Shown here piece by piece: positions 44,470 to 59,355 of a DNA stretch of 64,000 bases. The position numbers and the translations under genes were made by a program. Under the pieces are notes generated by a model. The model was not told where the DNA came from, did no database searches, and saw only the letters and a program-made list of their open reading frames with translations. Source of the DNA: Myxococcales bacterium (GTDB lineage: Bacteria; Myxococcota_A; Polyangia; Polyangiales; DASUME01); NCBI GenBank assembly GCA_047601445.1, contig JASGJH010000001.1, positions 9,056,001-9,120,000 on the forward strand. Reading direction: 5' to 3'. Every line of letters starts with the position of its first letter. The first letter of the stretch is position 1.

Positions 44470-45009
44470 CTATTCGGCGCTGCGCGGGGTACGCGCGGGA
44501 CGTTCTCCCCGCATGATGCGCAGCTGTTCGACGTTGGCCAGGCGCGCGTTACGACGGAACTGGGCCTCCTCGTAGCGGCGCTTCTCATCCGGCGTATCCA
44601 CCAAAAGCGGCGGGACCTTCACGGGTGTGCCGTCGGCCGCCACGCCCACGAAGGTGAGATAGGCCGAGACGATGTGCCGGTGCTCGCCCTTGAAGCTGTT
44701 CTCGGCCAACACCTTCACGCCGATCTCCATGGAGCTGGTCCAGGCCCGGTTGCATGCAGCCTTCACGATCAGGGTCTCACCGTCTTTGGCGGGCGCCATG
44801 AAATGCACCGAGTCCACGGAAGCGGTGACGCATACGCTGCCAGCGTGGCGCTCGGCCACCACCAGCGCGATGCGATCGCAGATGGCCATTACGAGCCCAC
44901 CGAACACGGTGTAGTGAGCGTTCAGGTCGTTGGGGAAGATCTTGTACACGTGGTTGTCCACCATGGAGGCGGACACGGGCTTGCCGGGGGGGATCACGTC
45001 GCTGCTCAA
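44470..45009 (-). CDS. acyl-CoA thioesterase (hotdog fold)
   Basis: FPNDLNAHYTVFGG, VTASVD, TSSMEIGV; TTGA overlap with folA. Confidence 0.88.
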   Translation of the reverse strand: MSSDVIPPGKPVSASMVDNHVYKIFPNDLNAHYTVFGGLVMAICDRIALVVAERHAGSVCVTASVDSVHFMAPAKDGETLIVKAACNRAWTSSMEIGVKVLAENSFKGEHRHIVSAYLTFVGVAADGTPVKVPPLLVDTPDEKRRYEEAQFRRNARLANVEQLRIMRGERPARTPRSAE

Positions 45010-45563
45010 GTGGGGCCTCGCTGGGTGCGTTCGTAGACTTCGAAGCTGAACTCCACGTCGCCGTCCCGATGGGGCCCGTCGCGCGTGACCAGCCGAAAAT
45101 CCTGCTCGAATTCTGCGAGAAACGCGTCGCACTCGAAGGCTCGGTGCACGCGGGTGAGATAGACCCGGCGGCAGCTCGGATCGCGCAGGGACTCGGCGTA
45201 GAGCGAGGCACCGCCGATCACGAAGATCCGGTCCACGCTGGGCAGGGAGATCAACTGTTCGAGCGTTTCGCTCAGCGAGCTGCACACCCGCACGCCGGGG
45301 TCGGCAGCAAAGGCGGGGTCGCGCGACAGCACCACGTTGAGGCGATCCTTGAGCGGGCGGAACTTGCCCGGGATGGACTCGTAGGTCTTGCGCCCCATCA
45401 CCACCGCGTTTTGGCGTCCTGCGCTGGCCTCGCTGGTGAGGCGCTTGAAGTAGGCCATCTCCGACGGGAGCTTCCAGGGCAGGCCGTTGGCTCTCCCGAT
45501 GCCCCGGTTTTCGTCGGCCGCGACCACGATCGAGAACGGGATCTCGCGTGCCACCTGACTCAC
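45006..45563 (-). CDS. folA: dihydrofolate reductase
   Basis: [47 protein letters not shown]. Confidence 0.95.
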
Positions 45564-46393
45564 ACCGAGACCGCGAAGCGGATGAAGGGATGGTGTTGGT
45601 ACTCGACCAGCTGGATGTCCTCGAAGCCCAGTTCGTCGAGCGGCTTCTTGGCGATCTCGACGCGCGGCGGCGCCAGGGGTGCGCGCGTCAACTGGAGCTT
45701 GAGGCCTTCCACGTGGTTCAGGTAGATGTGCGCGTCGCCGAGGGTGTGCACGAACACGCCGGGCGTGAGGTCGCACTCCTGAGCCATCATCATCAGGAGC
45801 AGGGCGTAGCTCGCGATGTTGAAGGGCACCCCGAGCGCGATGTCGGCCGAGCGCTGGTAGAGCTGCATGTCGAGCCGACCCCGGTTGACGTAAAACTGGA
45901 AGAACGCGTGACACGGCGGCAGCGCCATGTGCGGGATGTCGGCCACGTTCCAGGCGCTCACGATGATGCGGCGCGAGGTGGGGTCGCGCTTGATGAGGTC
46001 GATGGCCTCGCGAATTTGGTCGATGCCGGGTTCCGAGCGCTCGCCGCGCACCTCGTGCTTGTCGCGCGTGTGCTGCGCGAAGGGGGCGCCCCAGTGTCGC
46101 CACTGGTGGCCGTACACGGGACCGAGCTCGCCGTTCTCGTCGGCCCAGGCGTCCCAGATGGGCGAGTGCTGCGTGAGGTCGTCGCGCACGTTGGTGCTGC
46201 CGCGCAGAAACCAGAGGAGCTCGCGCACGACACCGGTCCAGAGCACCTTTTTGGTGGTCAAGAGCGGAAAGCCTTCGCGCAAGTCGTAGCGCGTCTGCGC
46301 CCCGAAGATCGACAGGGTGCCGGTGCCCGTGCGGTCCTCGCGGCGTTCGCCCTCGTCGAGGACACGCTGGACCAGTTCCAAATACTGCTTCAT
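45560..46393 (-). CDS. thyA: thymidylate synthase
   Basis: MKQYL, DRTGTGT, FPLLTTK, GPVYG, MALPPCH, YQRSAD..GVPFN, DAHIY. Confidence 0.97.
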
Positions 46394-46920
46394 CGATTCC
46401 CCTCGGTCTTGGTCGGGTCCTGACTTGGCTCGCGCGTGGCAGCACGCGCGTCTTGACTCGGCTCGCGCGTGGCAGCACGCGCGTCTTGACTTGGCTCGCG
46501 CGTGGCGGCACGCGCGTCTTGACTCGGCTCGCGCGTGGCAGCACGCGCGTCGACACACTCATCGATCCGGTCGCCCGTGATCTCGCCGCGCAGGGCGTCT
46601 TGGTGGGCCAGCCAGGCTTCGATCACCTGGGGCGGCACGCGGTGCTTCTCCAGCGTGGTCTTGAGGATTTGCCTGCGACGCCCGAAGTGGCCGCCCATGA
46701 TGGGGTGCCGCTGATGGGCCTCGCGCATGTCCCGGCCGGAGTAGCGGACCTGCGCCCCCAAGAACTCGGCCGCATGCTCGTACTCCATGCGCTTGAGGCG
46801 GTCCCGATTGACGCGCGCAAACAGGAAGCCGATCATGCCGTCCGCGCATACGCGCTCCACGAAGTCGTCGATGATCGCAGAGAGCGCGAACTCCCCACCG
46901 ATGTCTTCGAAGTACGTCAC
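46390..46920 (-). CDS. group I truncated hemoglobin with repeat-derived C-terminal tail
   Basis: [25 protein letters not shown] (proximal His); C-terminal ([11 protein letters not shown])x4; ATGA overlap with thyA. Confidence 0.8.
46421..46551. repeat. 4 x 33-bp tandem repeat, each unit containing an 8-bp hairpin
   Basis: Unit TGACTYGGCTCGCGCGTGGCRGCACGCGCGTCT; internal CGCGCGTG-N4-CACGCGCG. Confidence 0.95.
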
Positions 46921-49010: not shown

Positions 49011-49520
49011 TTAGTGCAGGCCCTTTTCCGTGATGTAGCGCAGGGTAAACGCGGCTTTGTCGGCGTTCCCCTCGACGCTCGACTTGGCCACGAAGTGCTC
49101 GATGATGGAGCCGATGCCGAAGATCTTGCAGTGCACGGAGTTCTTGCTCAGCTGCTCCACGCCACTTGCGTTCTCGTCGAGCCGCACGGCGCCGAGGATC
49201 TCCACGCGATCACCGATTACCGCCGGCACCATTCGATACGACCAGCACTTCTCGCGCGGATCGAACTTGCTGATCTCCTCGATGATCACGTTCTCGCCCA
49301 CCAGCTTGCGGATGGGGAGCGGAGCTTCGAGCGGCTTTTCGAAGCGCAGGCGTCGACTCATGCCCGTCTCGTAGTCGCCCTTGTGCTCGAGCACTTCCAT
49401 GCGGATGAATCCGAGCGCCTCGCAGTAGAGGCGCTGCTGGTAGTCGAGGTTCAGGCATAGCTCTCGCCAGTACGTCTCGGCGCGGACAGGGAAACGCTTG
49501 CGGAATTCGGATTCGATCAC
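49011..49520 (-). CDS. DUF2505-like / START (SRPBCC) fold putative lipid-binding protein
   Basis: 169 aa; helix-grip-like pattern ending KIFGIGSIIEHFV plus a C-terminal helix; GTGA coupling to the upstream dehydrogenase. Confidence 0.65.
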   Translation of the reverse strand: MIESEFRKRFPVRAETYWRELCLNLDYQQRLYCEALGFIRMEVLEHKGDYETGMSRRLRFEKPLEAPLPIRKLVGENVIIEEISKFDPREKCWSYRMVPAVIGDRVEILGAVRLDENASGVEQLSKNSVHCKIFGIGSIIEHFVAKSSVEGNADKAAFTLRYITEKGLH

Positions 49521-50542
49521 ACCAGACCCTGTTCTTTGAGGTGCGCACAGGTCAGGCGGATGCCCTCCGCCAGGTTCACCTTGGGCTCGTAGCCCAGGTC
49601 CCTGCGTGCCTTGTCGATGCTGAAATAGTGATGCCTCACCATATAGCGCACGGCAAACCGGGTCATCCCATCCTCCGCATTGAGGGTGCCCCCGCGCAGG
49701 GTATCGATGCCCTCCTTGATGGCGGCCGCGGCAAAGACGACGGGGTACGGGACCCCGCCCAGGATCGGCGGAAGCTTCAGCTCGGCGAGCACTTTGCCCA
49801 CGAAAGTGAAGAACGGCAGCGGCTCGCCGTTCGTCACGAAATAGGCCTGACCCGCGCTCGGACTGTCGGGGACGAGCCGACGATCCGCCAGGAGCAGCGC
49901 ATCTACCAGATTGCCCACGTAGGTGAAGTCGGAGAGCTTGCGATTGAAGAGGCCCACCGAGAAGCGCAGCTTGCCCGCCTTGGCCCGCTGCAGGACCGCT
50001 GGAAAGAAGCGCCGATCGCCGGGGCCGAACACCACGTGGGGACGGATCGCGCAGGTGAGCACTCCGCGCTGGCCGTTGGCCGCCAGGATCTCCTGTTCCG
50101 CTACGATCTTGCTGTCGGAGTAGGGAGCCTGACTCTTGCTGGAGTAGGGCAGGGTCTCGTCGCCGTTCTCGATGTCCTCGCCTTCGTACACGGCGCTGGC
50201 GGTGCTCACGTACACGAGCTTCTTCACGCGGGCCTTCCAGCAAGCGCGCAACACGCTGCGCGAGCCGCCCAGATTCACCGACCACACGTCGCTCTCGCGG
50301 TTGTGTTTGGTGTGAACCAGCGAGGCGTTGTGGAAGACCGTGGTCACGCCCTCGCAGAGCTTGGCCAGCGCGTCGGTGTCACGGATATCCACCCGCTCGA
50401 AGCGCATGTCGGAGCGCCAGGCCTCTCCGAAGGGCTCCACCACGATCACCGCGTCGCCGCGGGCGATCAGCGCGTCCACCAGGGCGCGACCCACGAAGCC
50501 GGCCCCCCCCGTCACCAACGAAACCTGCCTCTGCGTTTCCAT
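49517..50542 (-). CDS. NSDHL/Erg26-like sterol-4-carboxylate 3-dehydrogenase (3-beta-HSD family; SdmB-like)
   Basis: TGGAGFVG, STASAVYEGEDIENGDETLPY, YSDSK, CAIRPHVVFGPGD, DFTYVGN, GQAYFVTNGEP. Confidence 0.8.
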   Translation of the reverse strand: METQRQVSLVTGGAGFVGRALVDALIARGDAVIVVEPFGEAWRSDMRFERVDIRDTDALAKLCEGVTTVFHNASLVHTKHNRESDVWSVNLGGSRSVLRACWKARVKKLVYVSTASAVYEGEDIENGDETLPYSSKSQAPYSDSKIVAEQEILAANGQRGVLTCAIRPHVVFGPGDRRFFPAVLQRAKAGKLRFSVGLFNRKLSDFTYVGNLVDALLLADRRLVPDSPSAGQAYFVTNGEPLPFFTFVGKVLAELKLPPILGGVPYPVVFAAAAIKEGIDTLRGGTLNAEDGMTRFAVRYMVRHHYFSIDKARRDLGYEPKVNLAEGIRLTCAHLKEQGLV

Positions 50543-50566
50543 GGTTCGCGATGATGGTTCGAAAAA

Positions 50567-50582
50567 TAGAATCGTCAATCTA
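50567..50582. promoter_or_regulatory. imperfect palindrome in the divergent promoter; candidate TetR operator
   Basis: TAGAAT-CGTC-AATCTA flanked by A-tracts in the 101-bp intergenic gap. Confidence 0.35.
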
Positions 50583-50643
50583 AAAACTGGTTTGCCCGCT
50601 TCGAAGGGGCGAGTACAGTGCCCGGCAGAAGAGGGGCCGCCAC

Positions 50644-51783
50644 ATGGGCAAGCACGACTACGGGCACAACAAACCTGCGCCGCCGACGTTCGAAGAGGCC
50701 AACAACCTCCGTCAGCGGGCGCGCGTCGCCGGCATGGATCCCAACTACTGGTATCCGGCCATGATGTCGCGGGACTTGGCGGTCGGTGCGGTCAAAGAGG
50801 TGGTGTTCTGGCACCGCTCGTTCGCGTTCTTCCGCGGGCAAGACGGCGTGGTGCGCGCCATGGAGAACCGCTGTGCCCATCGCAACCTCAAGCTGACGCT
50901 GGGGCAGGTCGAAGGTTGCACGCTGCGCTGCGCCTACCACGGCTGGGCCTACGACGGCGAGGGCTGCCTGGTGGACATGCCCCACAACGACTTCGGCAAG
51001 AAGCTCAAGATCTCGCTGGAGACGTTCCCCGTGGCCGAGCGCTACGGGATGATCTTCTTCTTCCCCGGTGATCCCGAGCTCAGCAGCAAGCGCGAGATCC
51101 CTAGCATTCCCGAGATCGAAGGTGCGGACCCCTGGGCCCACGGCGTCATCGACTTCCACTGGAAGGGTCATCACTCGATGATCCTCGACAACGTCAGTGA
51201 CTTCACGCACGGCTACCTGCACCGCAAGTGGCGCCCCTTCGAGGGAGATCAGCTGTTGAGCCTCGAAGAGGCCAACGACCGCGTGATGCTGCAGTACAAC
51301 GCCAAGATCGCGGCCGCGAAGATCATGGACGTGCTGATCGATCGCAAGGCCCACGCGGGAACCTCGCACTACTCCTGTTACGAGTACCCTTACCAGTGGT
51401 CGAACACCGAAGAGTTCGTGAAGCACTGGCTGTTCGTGTGCCCGGTGGACGAGCGCAACACCATGGTGTTCTTCCTCTTCTACTACGCTGACTTCAAGGT
51501 TCCCTTCTTGCCGATCAAGCTGCCGCGCAAGCTGATGACCCCGCTGGTCCGCATGGGCCACGAGTACCTGGTGCGCCCGCTGTTCAACGAGGACGGCTGG
51601 GCCGTGCAGATGGAGCAGGAGGGCTACGACGGCCATTGGGACGCGCCGCTGGCAGAGGTGAACCCTCAGGTGCTCGCATTTCAGCGCCTCACCGTGCGCA
51701 AGTGGGAGACCTACCTGGAGAGTCAGAAGCTGACCAACATCAAGCGCAAGAAGCGGGAGCGCTCGGAGAATGCAGATGCCTGA
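50644..51783 (+). CDS. Rieske non-heme iron oxygenase (candidate SdmA-like sterol C-4 methyl oxidase)
   Basis: CAH..CAYH Rieske ligands; DNVSDFTHGYLH and NEDG mononuclear Fe ligands. Confidence 0.88.
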   Translation: MGKHDYGHNKPAPPTFEEANNLRQRARVAGMDPNYWYPAMMSRDLAVGAVKEVVFWHRSFAFFRGQDGVVRAMENRCAHRNLKLTLGQVEGCTLRCAYHGWAYDGEGCLVDMPHNDFGKKLKISLETFPVAERYGMIFFFPGDPELSSKREIPSIPEIEGADPWAHGVIDFHWKGHHSMILDNVSDFTHGYLHRKWRPFEGDQLLSLEEANDRVMLQYNAKIAAAKIMDVLIDRKAHAGTSHYSCYEYPYQWSNTEEFVKHWLFVCPVDERNTMVFFLFYYADFKVPFLPIKLPRKLMTPLVRMGHEYLVRPLFNEDGWAVQMEQEGYDGHWDAPLAEVNPQVLAFQRLTVRKWETYLESQKLTNIKRKKRERSENADA

Positions 51784-53402
51784 AGCCATCGAGATCACCA
51801 GCAGTGCATCCGTGCGCGACGCCCTCAAGAAGGCGGAGGCGCGCGGCCTCATCGAGTGTTACGAGCCCGCCACGCGCAAGCCCCTCGGCAGTGTGCAGGT
51901 CACCCCGCCCGAGAGCCTGCCCGGCCTGGTGCAGAGGGCGCGCAAGGCGCAGACGCTGTGGGCCAAGACGTCCTTCGACGAGCGCCGCAAGGTGATCGGG
52001 TTGTTGCTCGACCACGTGCTGGCCCATGCGGACGAGCTGTGCGACGTGGTGTCGCGCGACTCCGGCAAGACGCGCCATAACGCCATGCTGGGCGAGGTCT
52101 GGCCGGTGGTGGAGAAGGCGCGTTGGACCATCGCCCACGGTGAGAAGTTCCTGCAGACGGAGCGGGTTCCCTCCGGCGTCTTCCCCCACAAGCGTGCTCG
52201 CATCGAGTACGCACCGCTCGGCGTCATCGGCGTGATCGCGCCTTGGAACTACCCGCTGCAGAACATCCTCGGACCGACCATTCCTGCTTTGATGGCGGGC
52301 AACGCGGTGATCGTGAAGGTCAGCGAGTGGGTGGCCTGGTCGTCCGCGCGCTTCCAGAAGATCTTCGACGACGCCTTCAAGAAGGCTGGCTATCCGGTGG
52401 AGCTCGTGCAGATCGTGAACGGCTACGCCAAGACCGGCGCCGCGCTGGTCTCGTCGGGCGTGGACAAGATCGTGTTCACCGGTTCCCTCGAGAACGGCAA
52501 GCGCGTGCTCGCGCAGGCGGCAGACACGCTGACGCCGGTGGTGCTCGAGCTGGGTGGCAAGGATCCGCTCATCGTCTGCGACGACGCTCACATGGAGCAG
52601 GCGGTCCATGCGGCGTTGACTGGGTGCTTCATCAACTGCGGGCAGAACTGCCTGGCCAGCGAGCGCGCCCTGGTGTTCGACGCCGTCTACGACGCTTTCG
52701 CGGCGCGCGTGGTCGAGACCACCAAGCAGCTGCGCCAGGGCGAGCCGATGGGCGGATCCACCGTGGATCTGGGCGCCATCGTGTCGCCCTTGCAGCTCGA
52801 TTCTGATCGAGGGCCTGGTGCAGGAGGCCGTGCGGCAGGGGGCGCGCCTGTTGACTGGAGGCAAGCGAGCCCACGTGGAGCGCGGCCAATACTTCGAGCC
52901 CACCATCCTGGCGGACGTGACGCCCGACATGCGCATCGCCCACGAGGAGACCTTCGGGCCGGTGATGTTGCTGATGCGCGTCAAGAACGAGGAGGAGGCG
53001 CTGCGCGTGGCCAACGGCACGGCCTATGGCCTGGGCGCCACCGTGCTCTCCAAGGACGCGGCGCGCTGCCGACGCATGAGCTCGGCCCTGTCGGTGGGGA
53101 ACGTGTCGGTCAACGACTTCGGGCTCACGTACATGGCCATGGATTTGCCGTTCGGCGGCGTGCGTGGCTCGGGCTTCGGGCGCCTCAACGGCCGCGAGGG
53201 CCTGCGCGCCTGCACCAACATGAAGGCGATTCTCGAGGATCGCTTCCCGCTGCACGTGCCGGCCAAGGTGTTCCCCATCGGGCAGAACGCGGTCTCGGTG
53301 TCGCGCGAGGTCCTGCGCGTGCTCTACGAGCGTCGGCTCGGACAGCGCGTCGACGCCCTCGGCAAGTTGGCAGGCCTGGTGCTCAAGCGAGGCGAGTCGT
53401 GA
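51770..53402 (+). CDS. aldehyde dehydrogenase resembling the ALDH15/22 (Msc7/ALDH22A1) family (one apparent +1 frameshift at 52798-52803)
   Basis: CYEPAT, PWNYP, VKVSEWVAWS, LELGGKDP, GQNC, EETFGP, LPFGGVRGSGFGR; deleting one base gives 543 aa. Confidence 0.88.
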
Positions 53403-55045
53403 GTTCGCAGGCCGAGAGCTTCGACTACATCGTGGTCGGCGGCGGCTCGTCGGGCTGCGTGGTGGCGGGCGAGCTGTGCGCGGAGACGCGACTCGAGGTC
53501 GCACTCGTGGAGCAGGGCGACGACGCCGAGGCGCACCCCGAGACGCTGGAGGCGGACGGCTACAAGCACGCCTTCGCCAACGACGACCTGTTGCTCGACC
53601 GCTTCAGCACGCCGCAGGAGCACTGCAGGCAGCATCGCCTGTATTTGGGCTCCGGACGCGGGCTCGGTGGCAGCGGCTCCATCAACGGCATGGTCTACAC
53701 GCGTGGCGCCAAAGAGGACTACGCGAGTTGGCCGCGCGGCTATCAGTACGATGACCTGGCGCCGCTCTTCCAGTCCCTCGAGAACAAGCTGCGCGTGCGC
53801 CCGCGGGCCGGCACCGAGTTCACGGAGGTTTTCGTGCGTTCGGCCGAGGCCGCGGGCTTTCGCCGCAGTGCGAACATGAACGACGGCGACCTGTCGGGTG
53901 TGATCGGCTACGAGACCATGAACTACGAGGGCAGCGCGCGGCGCAGCTCTTACGTGTCCTACGTGCGCGAGGCACGGCAGCGCGAGAATCTGCACCTGGT
54001 GACGCGGGCGCTCACGCGACGCGTGATCTTCGAGGGCAACCGTGCGGTCGGCGTGGAGATCGAGCAGGCCGGCAAGCGCCGCGTCCTGCGCGCGCGCCGC
54101 GAGGTCATCCTGTGCGCCGGTGCGCTGGAGACGCCCAAGCTGCTGATGCTGTCGGGCGTGGGGCCGGCGGCCGAGCTGGCCAACCACGGTCTCAAGACGG
54201 TGGTCGACATGCCGTCGGTCGGCGAGAACCTGCACGATCATCCCAACGTCACGATGTTCTTCATGGGCAAGCACGAGGTGGACTCGTACTACCCGCAGTT
54301 GTACGGCTTCCATCGGGCCAACCCCGACAGTGACCTGCCCAAGGGACAGAGCGACACCTGCTACGTGATGTACCCCGCGCGCTCGTCGCTGCGCGAGGCC
54401 GCGATGCGCATGTTGCCGACCAAGCTGCCGGTGCCGCTCTACGGCAAGGCCTCCAAGGGGCTGATCCGCGCAGGCATCGCGGGCGCCACCAGTCTCGGCT
54501 TGGTGCAGGGTGGCATCGCACGCGTCTGGGGCTGCGTGGTGATCCTGGGCAAGCCCAAGAGCCGCGGACGACTCAGCCTGGCGTCGCGAGACCCCAAGCT
54601 GCAGGCCCACATCGATCCGGGCTACTTCACGCATCCGGAGGACATGGAGACCATGATCCGCGGCGTGAAGCTCGGTCGGCGCATCGCACAGGCGGAGCCG
54701 CTCGCCAAGTGGGGCAACTTCCCGCTGTTGCCGTTGGTGGCCAAGACCGACAAGCAGATTCAGGACTTCATCGAGGGCAACTTGATGACCACCTTCCACT
54801 ACGCAGGTACCTGCCGTATGGGCGAGGACAAGGCCAGCGTGGTCGATCTGGAGCTCAAGGTGCGCGGCACGCGCGGTCTGCGCGTGGCGGACGCTTCGGT
54901 GGTGCCGTTCACGCCCGTGTCAGCGATGAACGCGCCCAGCATGGTGATCGGCCTCAAGGCGGCGCGCCTGGTGCTCGCCCACGAGCGCTCACTGGGCAGC
55001 TCGAACTCGGAGATCAGCGGAGAACGTGAGGCATGGGGCGGCTGA
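53399..55045 (+). CDS. GMC family FAD oxidoreductase
   Basis: GGGSSG, GLGGSGSINGMVYTRG, TPKLLMLSGVG, GENLHDH, FHYAGTCRMG, LRVADAS; GTGA overlap with the ALDH stop. Confidence 0.92.
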   Translation: MSSQAESFDYIVVGGGSSGCVVAGELCAETRLEVALVEQGDDAEAHPETLEADGYKHAFANDDLLLDRFSTPQEHCRQHRLYLGSGRGLGGSGSINGMVYTRGAKEDYASWPRGYQYDDLAPLFQSLENKLRVRPRAGTEFTEVFVRSAEAAGFRRSANMNDGDLSGVIGYETMNYEGSARRSSYVSYVREARQRENLHLVTRALTRRVIFEGNRAVGVEIEQAGKRRVLRARREVILCAGALETPKLLMLSGVGPAAELANHGLKTVVDMPSVGENLHDHPNVTMFFMGKHEVDSYYPQLYGFHRANPDSDLPKGQSDTCYVMYPARSSLREAAMRMLPTKLPVPLYGKASKGLIRAGIAGATSLGLVQGGIARVWGCVVILGKPKSRGRLSLASRDPKLQAHIDPGYFTHPEDMETMIRGVKLGRRIAQAEPLAKWGNFPLLPLVAKTDKQIQDFIEGNLMTTFHYAGTCRMGEDKASVVDLELKVRGTRGLRVADASVVPFTPVSAMNAPSMVIGLKAARLVLAHERSLGSSNSEISGEREAWGG

Positions 55046-55704
55046 GTCCGAAAGACGGCGCCAAGCGCGCCAAGGCGGACATGTACCGGCGCCTCATCCT
55101 CGAGGCGGCCGAGCGCATCTTCGCCAGCGCGGGCTTCGAAGACGCCAAGATCCAGGACATCGCCCAGGGAGCGGGCATTTCGCTCGGCACGCTCTACACC
55201 GTGTTCCCGGGCAAGTCCGAGATCTACGACGCCGTCCAGGAGCAGCGCGGTCGCGAGATTCTCGAGAGCATCTTCCGCGCCTTGCAGGGACACGAGGGCG
55301 TGTACGACGCCTCCATGCGCGGCATCGAAGCCTACGTGCGCTCGCTGGTAGAGCGCCCGGCCTATCTGCGCATGCACCTGCGGGAAGGCCTGTCATGGAC
55401 CGAGCGGGATTCCATGCGCAGCGGGGAACAGCGTGCGATCTGGGAGCGCGGTGTGTCCATCGCGGTGAGCCTGCTGCAGGCAGGTATCGAGCAGGGCTAC
55501 TTCCACGGCGAGAATCCGCCGGAGCTGCTGCTCAAGATGATGATCGCCAGTCACCAGGTCCAGATCAAGGACTGGCTCGATCGCGGCGCCGTGCCGAGCG
55601 AGGTGGACTCGCTGGTGGCGCGCATGCAGGCACATTTTTCGCGCGCGTTCGTGCGCGACGAGAGTGCACGGGCGAACAAGAACAAGAAGCGTGTGAGCGG
55701 GTAG
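55033..55704 (+). CDS. TetR/AcrR family transcriptional regulator
   Basis: ILEAAERIFASAGFEDAKIQDIAQGAGISLGTLYTVFPGK. Confidence 0.93.
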   Translation: MGRLSPKDGAKRAKADMYRRLILEAAERIFASAGFEDAKIQDIAQGAGISLGTLYTVFPGKSEIYDAVQEQRGREILESIFRALQGHEGVYDASMRGIEAYVRSLVERPAYLRMHLREGLSWTERDSMRSGEQRAIWERGVSIAVSLLQAGIEQGYFHGENPPELLLKMMIASHQVQIKDWLDRGAVPSEVDSLVARMQAHFSRAFVRDESARANKNKKRVSG

Positions 55705-55715
55705 GGGAGAGAGTC

Positions 55716-57122
55716 ATGCAGACAGAGGCCAGCGTAGGCAGCACAGGCAAGTCCCGCGGCAACACCGCGCCATCCAAGAGCTACCGAGCGGTTCCGACGG
55801 TCTCGGGCGGTCTGCCGGTGCTCGGTCACAGCATCGAGTTCGCCGCCAATTTGTTGGGGCTGGTGAAGCGCGGTTACCAGGAGCACGGCGAGGTCGCGGG
55901 GCTCAAGGTGTTCGGCCGCAACATCGTGCTCTTGAGCGGCACCGACGCCCAGGAGGCCCTGTTTCGGGCGCCCGACGAGGTGTTGAGCCCGAACGAGGCC
56001 TACAAGATCATGACGCCCGTGTTCGGCAAGGACGTCGTGTACGACGCCAGCCCCGAGCGCATGGGTGAGCAACTCGGCATGCTGCGACCCGCGCTGCAGG
56101 ACAAGCGCATGCGCACCTATGGCGAGATCGTGGCCGAGGAGACCCGGCGCGCTGTATCGAGCTGGGGCGAGCGCGGCGAGCTCGATTTGGTGGAGTTCTG
56201 TGCCTCGCTGACCAACTTCACCTCCACCCACTGCCTGCTCGGGCGCGAGTTCCGCGAACAGATGAGCACCGAGTTCGCGCAGGTCTACTACGACCTGGAG
56301 CGCGGCGTGACCCCGGCGGCGTACATCCATCCGAACCTGCCGCTGCCTTCCATGCGCAAGCGCGATAAGGCCCGCGTGCGCCTGGTGGAGATGATCGAAG
56401 AGATCGTGAATCAGCGCCAGCGCAGCGGCAGCCGCGGCGAGGACTTCCTGCAGACCTTGATGGACGCGGAGTACAAGAACGGGGACAAGCTTACGCCCCA
56501 CGAGATCACCGGCATGTTGCTGGCAGCCATGTTCGCCGGTCACCACACCAGCAGCGTGACCACGGCGTGGACCCTGATCGAGCTCGCGCGCACCCCAGAC
56601 TATCTCGACCGCGTTCTCAACGAGCTGCACACGGTGTACAGGCCTGGGGACGACGTGACCTTCCAGTCGCTGCGTCAGATCCCGCTCACCGAGTACGCCG
56701 TCAAGGAATCGCTGCGGCTTCACCCCCCGCTCTACATCCTCCTGCGTTCGGCCCTCGTGGACTTCGAGTACCGGGACTATCTGCTGCCCAAGGGCACCTG
56801 GCTCGCCACGTCGCCCTGGGTCTCGCACCGCATTCCCGGCATCTTCCCCGAGCCGGAGCGCTTCGATCCGGACCGCTTCGCCCCGGGTCGCGAGGAGGAC
56901 AAGAAACAGTTCTCGTTCATCGCCTTCGGCGGCGGGCGCCACAAGTGCCTCGGCAACGCGTTCGCCATGCTGCAGGTCAAGACCATCTTCGCCATCTTGT
57001 TGCGCGGCTTCGAATTCGAGGTCCTGCACGACCCGATCATCCCGGAGAGCGGCCTGGTCATGGGGCCCAAGAAGCCATTCCGCGTGCGGTATCGTCGGCT
57101 GCGCCCCAACGGTCAATTCTGA
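55716..57122 (+). CDS. cyp51: cytochrome P450, CYP51 (sterol 14-alpha-demethylase) family
   Basis: YKIMTPVFGKDVVYDA (SRS1), AAMFAGHHTSS (I helix), ESLR, PERFDP, FGGGRHKCLG heme motif. Confidence 0.9.
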   Translation: MQTEASVGSTGKSRGNTAPSKSYRAVPTVSGGLPVLGHSIEFAANLLGLVKRGYQEHGEVAGLKVFGRNIVLLSGTDAQEALFRAPDEVLSPNEAYKIMTPVFGKDVVYDASPERMGEQLGMLRPALQDKRMRTYGEIVAEETRRAVSSWGERGELDLVEFCASLTNFTSTHCLLGREFREQMSTEFAQVYYDLERGVTPAAYIHPNLPLPSMRKRDKARVRLVEMIEEIVNQRQRSGSRGEDFLQTLMDAEYKNGDKLTPHEITGMLLAAMFAGHHTSSVTTAWTLIELARTPDYLDRVLNELHTVYRPGDDVTFQSLRQIPLTEYAVKESLRLHPPLYILLRSALVDFEYRDYLLPKGTWLATSPWVSHRIPGIFPEPERFDPDRFAPGREEDKKQFSFIAFGGGRHKCLGNAFAMLQVKTIFAILLRGFEFEVLHDPIIPESGLVMGPKKPFRVRYRRLRPNGQF

Positions 57123-57134
57123 GGAGAACGACAC

Positions 57135-57326
57135 ATGAAGATCGTCATCGATTGGGGTCTGTGCCAGGGGCACGCGAACTGCACCGGCGACGCTCCCGAC
57201 GTGTTTTCGGTGGACGACAACGGCAAGCTCACTGTGCTGCTCCCGGAGCCGCCCGAAGAGATGCGAAGCCAGCTGGAGCTCGCGGTCCGCTACTGTCCGA
57301 CGGGCGCGATTCGGATCGAGGGCTAA
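57135..57326 (+). CDS. fdx: 3Fe-4S ferredoxin (P450 partner)
   Basis: CQGHANC...CPTGAI; GAGGAG RBS right after cyp51. Confidence 0.9.
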   Translation: MKIVIDWGLCQGHANCTGDAPDVFSVDDNGKLTVLLPEPPEEMRSQLELAVRYCPTGAIRIEG

Positions 57327-57429: not shown

Positions 57430-59355
57430 ATGGGCATCGGGCGACCTCTGGTTCTCTCTTCGCTGTGGGTGACGGCGGCTCTTACAGCCTGTGGTGACGC
57501 CTCGACTCCCAGCGCCGACGCCGGGGCGGACTCGGGAGTCGTGAGCCCACTCGGTCCCTGCAAGCGACGCAATCCGACCCGCGATCCCTTCTTCGGCGAC
57601 CTGCACGCGCACACGGCCCTCTCGCTCGACGCGAACCTGCAAGGGACTCGGTTGCGCCCGGCGGATGCCTACCGGTTCGCACGCGGTGAGACCGTGGGGC
57701 TGCCGCCCTACGACAGCGCGAACAATCCGCAGCGCACGCTCACGCTATCGCGCCCGCTCGACTTCGTGGCCCTGTCGGATCACGCGGAGTTCCTGGGCCT
57801 GGTCACCACCTGCCTCACGCCTGGGCTGCCTGGCTACGACTCCAGCGAATGCACCCAATACCGAGACGACCCGGATACGGCGTTCCTGCTGCTCAACAGC
57901 CAGCTCGCCGCCGACCAGTCGACTGCGGGCTACCGGACTCCGTGCGACCAAGCCAACAACTTCTGCGACTCCGCGGCGCTCAGCGCCTGGAATGAAGTGA
58001 AGGCTGAGGCCGAAGCGGCCAACGACGAGAGCGAGGAGTGCGCGTTCACGGCCTTCGTGGCCTACGAATGGTCCGCTTCTCCCGGCACCCTGAACCTCCA
58101 TCGCAACGTCATCTTCCGCAACCAGAGTGTGCCGACTCTGCCGTTTAACTACTTCGATGGCAGCGAAGAAGAAGAGCTCTGGGACGCGCTCGACAAGGAC
58201 TGCCTCCAGGCCGGCAGCGGCTGCGACGCTTTGACCATCCCGCACAACTCCAACCTTTCGGCGGGCCTGATGTTCGAGCCCGTGAAGGCCGATGGGCAGG
58301 CCTTCGACAAGGCCTACGCCGAGCGCAGGGCGGCGTTCGAGCCGTTGGTGGAGATCTTCCAGCACAAGGGCAGCTCCGAGTGCTTGCCCGAGATGGGGCC
58401 GGACGAGTTCTGCAACTTCGAGAAGATGCCCTACAACACGCTGTCCACCGTGGTCTTCGGGCTGCAGCCCGACAAGCTGGTGCCGCGAGACTACGTGCGG
58501 GATGCGCTCGGCCAGGGGCTGCGCTTTCAGGCCACGCTCGGGGCCAACCCGTTCGGCTACGGCTTCGTGGCGAGCACCGATACGCATATGGGCACGCCCG
58601 GCGGCGTGGAGGACGACAAGTTTCAGGGTCACGGTGGGGCAGGCTCGAACGCACGCGATGCGCTGCCGCAGGGCCTGGTCGACCACGTGTGGCTCAACCC
58701 CGGTGGCCTGGCGGTGCTCTGGGCCGAGGAGAACCGCCGCGACTCGCTGTTCGACGCCATGCGTAGACGCGAGGCCTACGCCACGAGTGGATCGCGCATT
58801 GTGCTGCGCTTCTTCGGCGGCTCCGACATCCCTGACAACCTGTGTGGTGCCGCAGACTTCGTGCAGCAAGGCTACGCGCTCGGGGTGCCGATGGGAGGCG
58901 AGCTCAAGTCCCAGCAGCCACCCAAGTTCGCCGTCTACGCACTGAAGGACGCGGGCACAGCCGAGCTGCCTGGCGTGCCCTTGCAGCGCGTTCAGATCAT
59001 CAAGGGCTGGCTCGAGAACGACAGCGTGCAGTACGCCATCTACGACGCAGCGGGGGGCGGCAACGACGCCAACGTCGATCCCAACACCTGCGAGCGCAGC
59101 GGCGCCGGCCAAGACGAGCTGTGCGGGGTCTGGACCGATCCCGACTTCGATCCGGCGCAGCACGCCTTCTACTACGCGCGCGTGCTCGAGAACCCCAGCT
59201 GCCGCTGGCATGCCCTGCAGTGCAGCCGCGCGGGCGTGACTTGCGGGGCGGATGGCCCGAGCAAGCCTGGTTTCGAGGGCTGCTGCGACGAGCGCTATCC
59301 CAAGGTGCAGCAGGAGCGCGCCTGGTCGAGCCCCATCTTCTACAAGGCCTTGTGA
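57430..59355 (+). CDS. DUF3604 family lipoprotein (PHP-like metal-binding fold)
   Basis: Lipobox LTA-C; FGDLHAHT, DFVALSDH, NLHRNV, IPHNSN, STDTH, QERAWSSPI. Confidence 0.85.
   Translation: MGIGRPLVLSSLWVTAALTACGDASTPSADAGADSGVVSPLGPCKRRNPTRDPFFGDLHAHTALSLDANLQGTRLRPADAYRFARGETVGLPPYDSANNPQRTLTLSRPLDFVALSDHAEFLGLVTTCLTPGLPGYDSSECTQYRDDPDTAFLLLNSQLAADQSTAGYRTPCDQANNFCDSAALSAWNEVKAEAEAANDESEECAFTAFVAYEWSASPGTLNLHRNVIFRNQSVPTLPFNYFDGSEEEELWDALDKDCLQAGSGCDALTIPHNSNLSAGLMFEPVKADGQAFDKAYAERRAAFEPLVEIFQHKGSSECLPEMGPDEFCNFEKMPYNTLSTVVFGLQPDKLVPRDYVRDALGQGLRFQATLGANPFGYGFVASTDTHMGTPGGVEDDKFQGHGGAGSNARDALPQGLVDHVWLNPGGLAVLWAEENRRDSLFDAMRRREAYATSGSRIVLRFFGGSDIPDNLCGAADFVQQGYALGVPMGGELKSQQPPKFAVYALKDAGTAELPGVPLQRVQIIKGWLENDSVQYAIYDAAGGGNDANVDPNTCERSGAGQDELCGVWTDPDFDPAQHAFYYARVLENPSCRWHALQCSRAGVTCGADGPSKPGFEGCCDERYPKVQQERAWSSPIFYKAL

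Follow-up and report, generated by a model that had tools for sequence, protein, structure and literature searches.

Divergent cluster of predicted sterol demethylation genes

We analyzed a window of 64,000 nucleotides from a Myxococcales bacterium (assembly GCA_047601445.1, contig JASGJH010000001.1, positions 9,056,001 to 9,120,000) and describe here a divergent cluster of eight genes at its positions 49,011 to 57,326, which is predicted to demethylate sterols at C-14 and C-4. The host genome (G000, with the single contig C1) has 9.5 Mb and 66% GC, and close homologues are labelled Polyangiales or Myxococcales. On the reverse strand lie the genes for a 169-aa DUF2505 protein (49011..49520; Pfam PF10698), whose GTG start overlaps the stop codon of its neighbor, and for a 341-aa short-chain dehydrogenase/reductase (SDR) of the predicted ERG26/NSDHL type (49517..50542; Pfam 3Beta_HSD). 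A divergent spacer of exactly 101 bp follows (50543..50643), with an imperfect inverted repeat of 11-bp arms and a 13-bp spacer (50568..50602) as candidate TetR operator. The forward strand encodes a predicted SdmA-type Rieske oxygenase (379 aa, 50644..51783), an aldehyde dehydrogenase (ALDH) of the Msc7/'ERG27-analog' family (51770..53402; Pfam Aldedh in two halves, with a one-base insertion at 52801/52802), a GMC oxidoreductase (548 aa, 53399..55045; Pfam GMC_oxred_N/C), a TetR-family regulator (223 aa, 55033..55704; Pfam TetR_N), CYP51 (468 aa, 55716..57122) and a small single-cluster ferredoxin (63 aa, 57135..57326; C-x2-H-x2-C...CP; Pfam Fer4_15/Fer4_13). Neighboring genes within an arm overlap or are separated by no more than 12 bp. 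The original prediction had placed the eight genes and the spacer correctly.

Gene order is kept in all seven congeners that have the Rieske gene (nine searched), as far as their contigs extend, so synteny is conserved across the genus and the arrangement is not due to chance. The exception is genome G008, in which a GMC remnant of about 100 bp lies between ALDH and TetR (L028:11400-11530). The operon is thus real and genus-conserved, an uncommon combination of known families. Calling the system complete, as was done at first, overstated the case: the cluster lacks genes for a 3-ketoreductase, a C-14 reductase and a ferredoxin reductase, and the assembly has a frameshift in its ALDH.

By sequence, the P450 is a CYP51. 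All of its top 36 PDB matches bear the name CYP51 or sterol 14alpha-demethylase (best E 6e-148; 7jj1/6mi0/6mcw), and the heme Cys and I-helix motifs are present. From its His motif, we take the ferredoxin to hold a 3Fe-4S cluster. It would be the cognate electron donor of the CYP51, by analogy with the reported cases of CYP51 fused or adjacent to its own ferredoxin (PMC13277303).

A predicted upstream sterol pathway in the host genome

No oxidosqualene cyclase or squalene epoxidase had been seen in the window; searching the whole genome, we found both elsewhere. The cyclase, of lanosterol type, lies at C1:4800236 (4.80 Mb); it has a VSDCTAE motif and scores 711 bits with TIGR03463, below the cut-off of 851, while reaching the cut-off of TIGR01787. 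V453 is reported as the mark of lanosterol synthases (PMC4919349). Directly before the cyclase gene lies a 1206-aa squalene epoxidase-squalene synthase fusion. In this region (L009:8598-14260; G000 C1:4796598-4802260), the epoxidase, a partial segment of cyclase/prenyltransferase fold and the synthase are followed by the cyclase; locus L214 has a similar 1105-aa ORF, and the same spacing occurs in many loci of the order. ERG4/ERG24-family, ERG2 and mevalonate-type HMG-CoA reductase genes are found elsewhere in G000, and a cyclase is present in eight of nine congeners.

Looking for steroid degradation, taken as KstD plus KshA in one genome, we obtained no KstD match in G000 at E<=1e-30 and only weak KshA_C matches of 83 and 60 bits (up to 187 bits in genus g8, described below); this pair is thus not found in G000, Hsa/HIP genes not having been searched. 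The cluster carries the sole CYP51 and the sole SdmA-grade Rieske of G000. The presence of a cyclase and an epoxidase, together with the failure to find KstD, makes the cluster most likely biosynthetic rather than catabolic here. Holding the only CYP51 and the only SdmA of a cyclase-bearing genome, it would supply the tailoring steps of de novo sterol synthesis. We consider a role of the operon in biosynthetic C-14 and C-4 demethylation very probable.

As a separate observation, G000 encodes a 314-aa membrane protein (C1:7015801-7016745) that is 49-51% identical to the product of a gene lying between CYP51 and ferredoxin in two other loci (L102:8797-9819 and L197:2963-4042; no Pfam match). We presume a resemblance to cyclopropylsterol isomerase CPI1; such an enzyme would be unexpected alongside a V453 cyclase.

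SdmA-type Rieske is paired with an ERG26-type SDR

The Rieske protein scores 341 bits with NF052579, under the cut-off of 600. A homologue from Enhygromyxa salina (P0072, possibly the protein assayed in PMC10202945) also misses the cut-off with 413 bits, so this model appears to be tuned to methanotrophs. The cluster Rieske is 52-54% identical to P0072, and in a tree of 71 rows it falls inside an in-group with 100/100 support, together with the Methylococcales and E. salina homologues; the inner order of this group is unresolved, and it also includes orphan Rieskes without assigned function. The CxH/CxxH and mononuclear-iron ligands are invariant. As a KshA or aromatic oxygenase the protein is only remotely matched (KshA E 8e-12). 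Its place in the SdmA radiation points to an SdmA-type enzyme, predicted to oxidize a sterol C-4 methyl.

The best PDB match of the SDR in a single-sequence search is human NSDHL (6jkg, E 8e-44), and the profile search gives NSDHL at E 6.5e-60 versus 1.9e-26 for the next match. The TGxxGxxG and YxxxK motifs are present. As SdmB it was rejected: the SdmB model gives it 74 bits, compared with about 290 bits for SdmB-type genes that flank SdmA (the best G000 gene has 156 bits), and it forms a clade apart in the tree. OleD was rejected as well (233 bits, cut-off 580). The SDR is therefore best described as a predicted C-4 decarboxylase of the ERG26/NSDHL type, not SdmB. Together, the CYP51, the SdmA-clade Rieske and the NSDHL-type SDR agree, at the level of sequence, with the C-14 plus C-4 demethylation originally proposed.

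In the 10 genomes of the genus, no gene reaches SdmB grade (at least 280 bits; best 231 bits). An ERG25-like gene occurs in 1 of these 10 versus 19 of 23 other chosen genomes, and the cluster-type ERG25-like query gave no match in G000, which has eight other PF04116 genes. SdmA and ERG26 are thus the sole candidate C-4 pair in the genus, and by its sequences the cluster belongs to a rare hybrid type, SdmA+ERG26. Of 49 SdmA-grade loci from the order's other genera, 46 have SdmB, one has ERG26 (G032) and two have neither. The adjacency of SdmA and ERG26 recurs in G032 and in G301, of another family, whose locus L102 has GMC, ALDH, TetR, ERG26, SdmA, CYP51 and ferredoxin genes all present in a different order. 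Among 73 genomes sampled from the family of G301, 59 have SdmA and 31 have ERG26, the two being adjacent in G301 only; its best SdmB-model score, 249 bits, is ambiguous. G043 and G030 show the converse mix: ERG25-like, ERG26 and SdmB-grade genes, and none of SdmA grade. Two further SDRs of G000 (C1:3096335 and C1:5644935), candidate 3-ketoreductases, group with an SDR whose gene follows ERG26 in five loci elsewhere.

Other loci show further variants. SdmA-like Rieskes of 36-39% identity occur in L033-L036 and L084-L093, with no recognised sterol genes in the fetched loci. An 875-aa ORF upstream of SdmA (L032:10431-13058) is an HMG-CoA reductase fused to an SdmB-type SDR. An SdmB-SdmA-ERG24-CYP51-(SE-OSC) cassette is present in nine records (L099, L101, L116, L118, L119, L125-L128) labelled Pseudomonadales, Nitrospirales, Gamma-/Alphaproteobacteria and Chloroflexota; those of its SdmAs that were in the tree group closely, suggesting lateral spread. 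Candidate non-CYP51 P450s adjoin ERG26 or GMC at L209:10155-11336, L203:5939-7216 and L199:5577-6938; L203 also carries a sterol methyltransferase. That of L209 was confirmed as a P450, and our searches of its genome (G203) gave no SdmA-grade, ERG25-like, cluster ALDH or cyclase gene; it may represent a C-4 oxidase of a third kind.

ALDH and GMC are linked to each other and to sterol genes

The GMC protein has alcohol and choline oxidases as its best PDB matches and carries His467/Asn511. No cholesterol oxidase is among its 15 PDB matches at E<=1e-45. It is of the alcohol/choline-oxidase type, and we predict that it oxidizes a 4-hydroxymethyl sterol. Counting over the fetched loci and 25 chosen genomes, we find GMC directly downstream of ALDH in 33 of 41 loci; of the 20 that were picked by ALDH alone, 17 show this arrangement. 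Among the 25 hand-picked genomes of the G301 family, 23 have both genes and two have neither; the genes are adjacent in 12, and an SdmA>ALDH>GMC tandem occurs in nine.

An intact orthologue of the ALDH (L024) shares 40% identity with a fungal protein annotated as meiotic sister-chromatid recombination ALDH, and the nearest relatives in a search of 1.84 billion representatives include eukaryotic proteins. The myxobacterial cluster ALDHs and the eukaryotic homologues form one clade (SH-aLRT 100) in a quick tree of 55 rows, in which the outgroup is not monophyletic and yeast Msc7 itself is not among the rows. We take P38694 to be yeast Msc7, and plant ALDH22 to belong to the same ALDH family. All 26 clade members checked have the catalytic residues Asn, Glu and Cys plus the second Glu. 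In the ESM Atlas, only Myxococcota clusters were found for ALDH and DUF2505, plus one PRELI-labelled cluster. A second Msc7-type ALDH paralogue (48-52% identity) occurs in many SdmA+SdmB genomes, in families f8 and f17 of the order sample and in the G301 family.

In a sample of 300 genomes of the order (G122 omitted and five weak ERG26 matches dropped), ALDH is present in 113, ERG26 in 101, cyclase in 114 and SdmA in 56. Of the 88 genomes with both an ERG26-type SDR and the ALDH, 56 have the two genes no more than 15 kb apart; without genera g1 and g8 the count is 11 of 33. Outside g8, 55 of 63 ALDH genomes have a cyclase, and ALDH occurs in only 8 of about 152 cyclase-less genomes. The ALDH is found beside ERG25, ERG26 or SdmA in several families.

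The first analysis knew of no described cluster with the ALDH, which does not hold: it is the 'ERG27-analog' of Desmond and Gribaldo, a putative 3-ketoreductase (PMC2817430), which Hoshino and Gaucher report as mostly flanked by ERG25 and ERG26 and likewise read as a putative 3-ketoreductase (PMC8237579 and its SI). For the GMC partner, we found no paper that names it in the literature searched, though bioRxiv supplements or figures may show one; nor did we find a paper describing the SdmA+ERG26 hybrid. As far as searched, three points are new: the hybrid, the GMC as a partner, and a reading in which the Msc7-type ALDH is a predicted 4-formyl-sterol dehydrogenase.

Proposed split oxidation of the C-4 methyl

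From the observed gene identities, synteny, presence/absence patterns and catalytic residues, we infer substrates, step order, regulation and a carrier role as follows. Lanosterol would be made elsewhere in the genome by the squalene epoxidase-synthase fusion and the V453 cyclase, and CYP51 with its ferredoxin would take off the C-14 methyl. The SdmA-type Rieske would hydroxylate a C-4 methyl, and may reach the aldehyde; 4-hydroxymethyl sterol released from it would be converted by GMC to 4-formyl sterol, and the Msc7-type ALDH would oxidize this to the acid. The ERG26-type SDR would then oxidize the 3-OH, giving a beta-keto acid that loses CO2, and a reductase from outside the cluster, perhaps one of the two candidate SDRs, would restore the 3-OH. 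TetR would repress both arms via the spacer palindrome, and DUF2505 may shuttle hydrophobic intermediates.

The catalytic residues of the ALDH, its GMC partner and its sterol-gene neighbors together favor the sequence CH3 > CH2OH > CHO > COOH > decarboxylation. Performing their assays with SdmA alone, others report that the E. salina and Calothrix enzymes accumulate a 4-methylaldehyde (PMC10202945), which is the substrate that such an ALDH needs. Division of the oxidation between GMC and ALDH had been put forward in the original prediction, and comparative genomics agrees with it. We favor the full split-oxidation mechanism, if only modestly.

A number of points weigh against it. According to a review (PMC6385002), the M. 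capsulatus SdmA carries out all three oxidations; SdmAB alone is reported to demethylate fully in Calothrix (PMC10202945), and SdmAB is said to do so in Sandaracinus and Minicystis (bioRxiv 10.1101/2024.11.01.621555). There is also a stereochemical mismatch, as SdmA is described as attacking the 4beta-methyl and the NSDHL/eukaryotic system the 4alpha (PMC6385002). The ERG26-partnered SdmAs cluster only weakly in the tree (70/97, bootstrap 70). In the order sample, ALDH is absent from 24 of 56 SdmA genomes and from 42 of 114 cyclase genomes; of the 41 ALDH loci, nine are near CYP51 and 12 have no recognised sterol gene within 10 kb. The genomes behind our counts are related and often fragmented, and the loci were partly selected around these very genes, so the counts show linkage and not independent events. 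Finally, GMC is lost to a remnant in G008, and the ALDH frame is broken in G000.

ALDH frameshift and the case for dispensability

The original prediction took the ALDH as a plain gene and overlooked the frameshift. One extra base at 52801/52802 is absent from all six relatives whose contigs span the site, and their frames are intact. A 1091-aa ALDH-GMC 'fusion' ORF is an artefact of this shift: the 5' half of ALDH runs on in the GMC frame, the middle is out-of-frame, and the relatives have two genes. Each half of the ALDH is 87-88% identical to G007, similar to neighboring genes, which means that the lesion arose very recently unless it is an assembly indel. In a control, 0 of 70 orthologues were frame-changed and the detector did catch the ALDH break; an assembly error is therefore not simply to be assumed, which counts as a further point against us. 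A second P450 of G000 (C1:1589891-1591199) is likewise split by a frame change, so the assembly does carry indels. For the ALDH step to work in this strain, the frameshift has to be an error of the assembly.

These data bear on a different reading, in which SdmA does all three oxidations, ERG26 decarboxylates, and ALDH and GMC are dispensable clean-up enzymes, a legacy of the older ERG25-ERG26 cluster, and are themselves being lost in the genus. The GMC deletion in G008, the ALDH lesion set against its clean control, the 24 SdmA genomes without ALDH and the processive SdmA reported for M. capsulatus (PMC6385002) would all fit. They are countered by the intact ALDH of all six relatives spanning the site, by two ALDH halves as conserved as their neighbors, by the assembly indel that the split P450 reveals, and by the recurrence of the SdmA>ALDH>GMC tandem in another family (9/25). 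We regard dispensability as rather unlikely.

Other roles for ALDH and GMC

The published reading of the ALDH as a 3-ketosterol reductase would complete an SdmA-ERG26-ERG27analog set and leave GMC another role, such as 3beta-OH oxidation. It draws on the eukaryotic phyletic pattern reported for the family (PMC2817430), on its synteny with ERG25/ERG26 (PMC8237579 SI) and on the lack of any other ketoreductase in the cluster. The canonical Cys/Glu/Asn site in 26 of 26 members counts against it. By established chemistry, ALDHs act on aldehydes via a thioester and are not known to act on ketones. The ALDH is also retained beside SdmB, already a ketone reducer, in L123 and L061; a separate SDR comes after ERG26 in five loci; and the yeast copy is reported to be present without rescuing erg27 (PMC2817430). 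We hold a ketoreductase role of the ALDH to be improbable.

ALDH and GMC might instead act on the C-14 (C-32) alcohol or aldehyde released by CYP51, or on a side-chain C-26 alcohol or aldehyde. ALDH-GMC directly follows CYP51-ferredoxin in L214, L216 and L226, although ERG25-like genes are also in these three loci. We take the mycobacterial CYP51 operon, with ALDH, alcohol dehydrogenase and TetR, as a parallel; the Rv0768 model reaches only 112 bits on the cluster ALDH, over its C-terminal half. Many ALDH-GMC loci have SdmA or ERG25/ERG26 without CYP51 (L123, L194-196, L199, L200, L205), and we hold such a role to be improbable too.

The last alternative, an inducible module that remodels or degrades methylsterols scavenged from prey, had been raised at the outset and leads to genus g8. 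There the module consists of ERG26, ERG25-like, PaaE/KshB-like reductase, TetR, ALDH and GMC genes; a cyclase is present in only 17 of 50 ALDH-bearing g8 genomes and in none of five chosen near-complete ones. The tested g8 genomes have CYP51 (4/4), KstD-like genes (4/4, below the cut-off) and 6-11 KshA-like genes (3/3). CYP51 and 8,14-Bsr are reported in sterol degraders also (PMC13277303). Scavenging therefore fits these cyclase-less relatives. For G000, the embedded TetR with its candidate operator, the distance of the cluster from the cyclase and the lack of an operator-like site at the cyclase locus could be read the same way, but with a cyclase in G000 and 8/9 congeners, an epoxidase, no KstD match, weak KshA_C matches and its only CYP51 and SdmA in this cluster, scavenging is highly unlikely here.

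Regulator, palindrome and DUF2505 protein

Returning to the operon of G000, the TetR protein has only 27.6 bits with the KstR model, and homologues of 33-43% identity lie within ERG26/ALDH/GMC clusters of other families. The 11-13-11 palindrome occurs in 8/8 spacers from the genus. A matrix built from these eight sites ranks it first in G000 (28.6 versus 18.2 for the next). It overlaps a sigma70-like -35/-10 match on the reverse strand (50578-50551), one such match being found versus 0.7 expected. On this sequence evidence, the palindrome is a candidate TetR operator. A genome-wide TetR regulon was rejected, as there is no strong second site in G000 and none at the cyclase or ERG24 loci or in the clusters of other families.

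The AlphaFold model of the DUF2505 protein (pLDDT 89.8) was compared by Foldseek, placing PRELID/Ups1 on top, with AsterA/C and Lam2/4 also found (TM 0.55-0.71). The model has a START/PRELI/Aster-like helix-grip fold, in line with the START-like protein first proposed for the left arm. The closest folds are phospholipid carriers (PRELID/Ups1), sterol carriers scoring just behind, and we regard the protein as a candidate soluble sterol or lipid carrier. DUF2505 adjoins the SDR in 7/7 same-genus loci and was not seen in the cluster loci of other genera.

Two neighboring genes of the window are noted. A DUF3604 gene (57430-59355) follows the ferredoxin here, in G007 and in G004, not in G008, and is probably outside the operon. 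A 518-aa ORF (45006-46562) has a C-terminal dihydrofolate reductase domain (residues 343-512), with no Pfam match for its N-terminal part in that frame.

Comparison with known systems

A broader, tentative picture is that C-4 demethylation in much of Myxococcota uses a five-enzyme mix-and-match module, in which a first oxidase of either the di-iron ERG25 type or the Rieske SdmA type is joined by GMC, Msc7-type ALDH, either ERG26 or SdmB, and an SDR that serves as a distinct ketoreductase. The 'ERG27-analog' would then be a 4-formyl-sterol dehydrogenase. If true, the orphan eukaryotic Msc7 family would gain a sterol-synthetic function as old as the eukaryotic ancestor, the search for the plant and protist 3-ketoreductase would be reopened, and cyclase-less steroid degraders could strip the methyls of scavenged sterols with the same module. 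The hybrid would be a further C-4 demethylation route, mixing the 'bacterial' SdmA and the 'eukaryotic' ERG26 that are usually seen as alternatives. This is relevant to how eukaryotic sterol synthesis arose, to 4-methylsterane biomarkers and to the bacterial degradation of methylated sterols.

Chains such as AlkB/AlkJ/AlkH pass from a hydroxylase to a GMC alcohol dehydrogenase and an ALDH. The proposed module has the same methyl-to-carboxylate logic; substrates and families differ, and we take this as a resemblance only. The DUF2505 protein shares the helix-grip fold of the eukaryotic Aster/Lam/PRELI carriers. Like the BstABC sterol transporters (PMC10942540), it is a putative carrier beside sterol genes, although BstC is all-helical and unrelated to it. 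The CYP51 with adjacent ferredoxin is common to Methylococcus, Mycobacterium, uncultured Myxococcota (PMC13277303) and this cluster. In contrast to what is reported for those systems, no NTF2-type 8,14-Bsr gene stands beside CYP51 at this locus (no genome-wide search for it was made), and an ERG4/ERG24-family gene lies elsewhere in the genome.

With the eukaryotic ERG25/ERG26/ERG27/ERG28 system, the cluster shares the NSDHL-type decarboxylase, and homologues of the Msc7-type ALDH occur in fungi, algae and protists; here the oxidase is a Rieske protein rather than a di-iron enzyme, no ERG27-type gene is in the cluster, and a soluble GMC is added. The myxobacterial ERG25-ERG26-'ERG27-analog' cluster (PMC8237579; PMC2817430) has ERG26 and the Msc7-type ALDH in common with ours and is likewise inferred to act in C-4 demethylation, with ERG25 where SdmA stands here. 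Its published account reads the ALDH as a ketoreductase, and the GMC and TetR partners go unmentioned in the parts of it considered here ('GMC' occurs 0 times in the SI). In the SdmAB/SdmABC systems of M. capsulatus, E. salina and Calothrix, as reported (PMC10202945), a Rieske of the SdmA radiation is likewise found in a cyclase-bearing genome; here no SdmB- or SdmC-grade gene was found, and an ERG26-type SDR, an ALDH and a GMC oxidoreductase accompany it instead.

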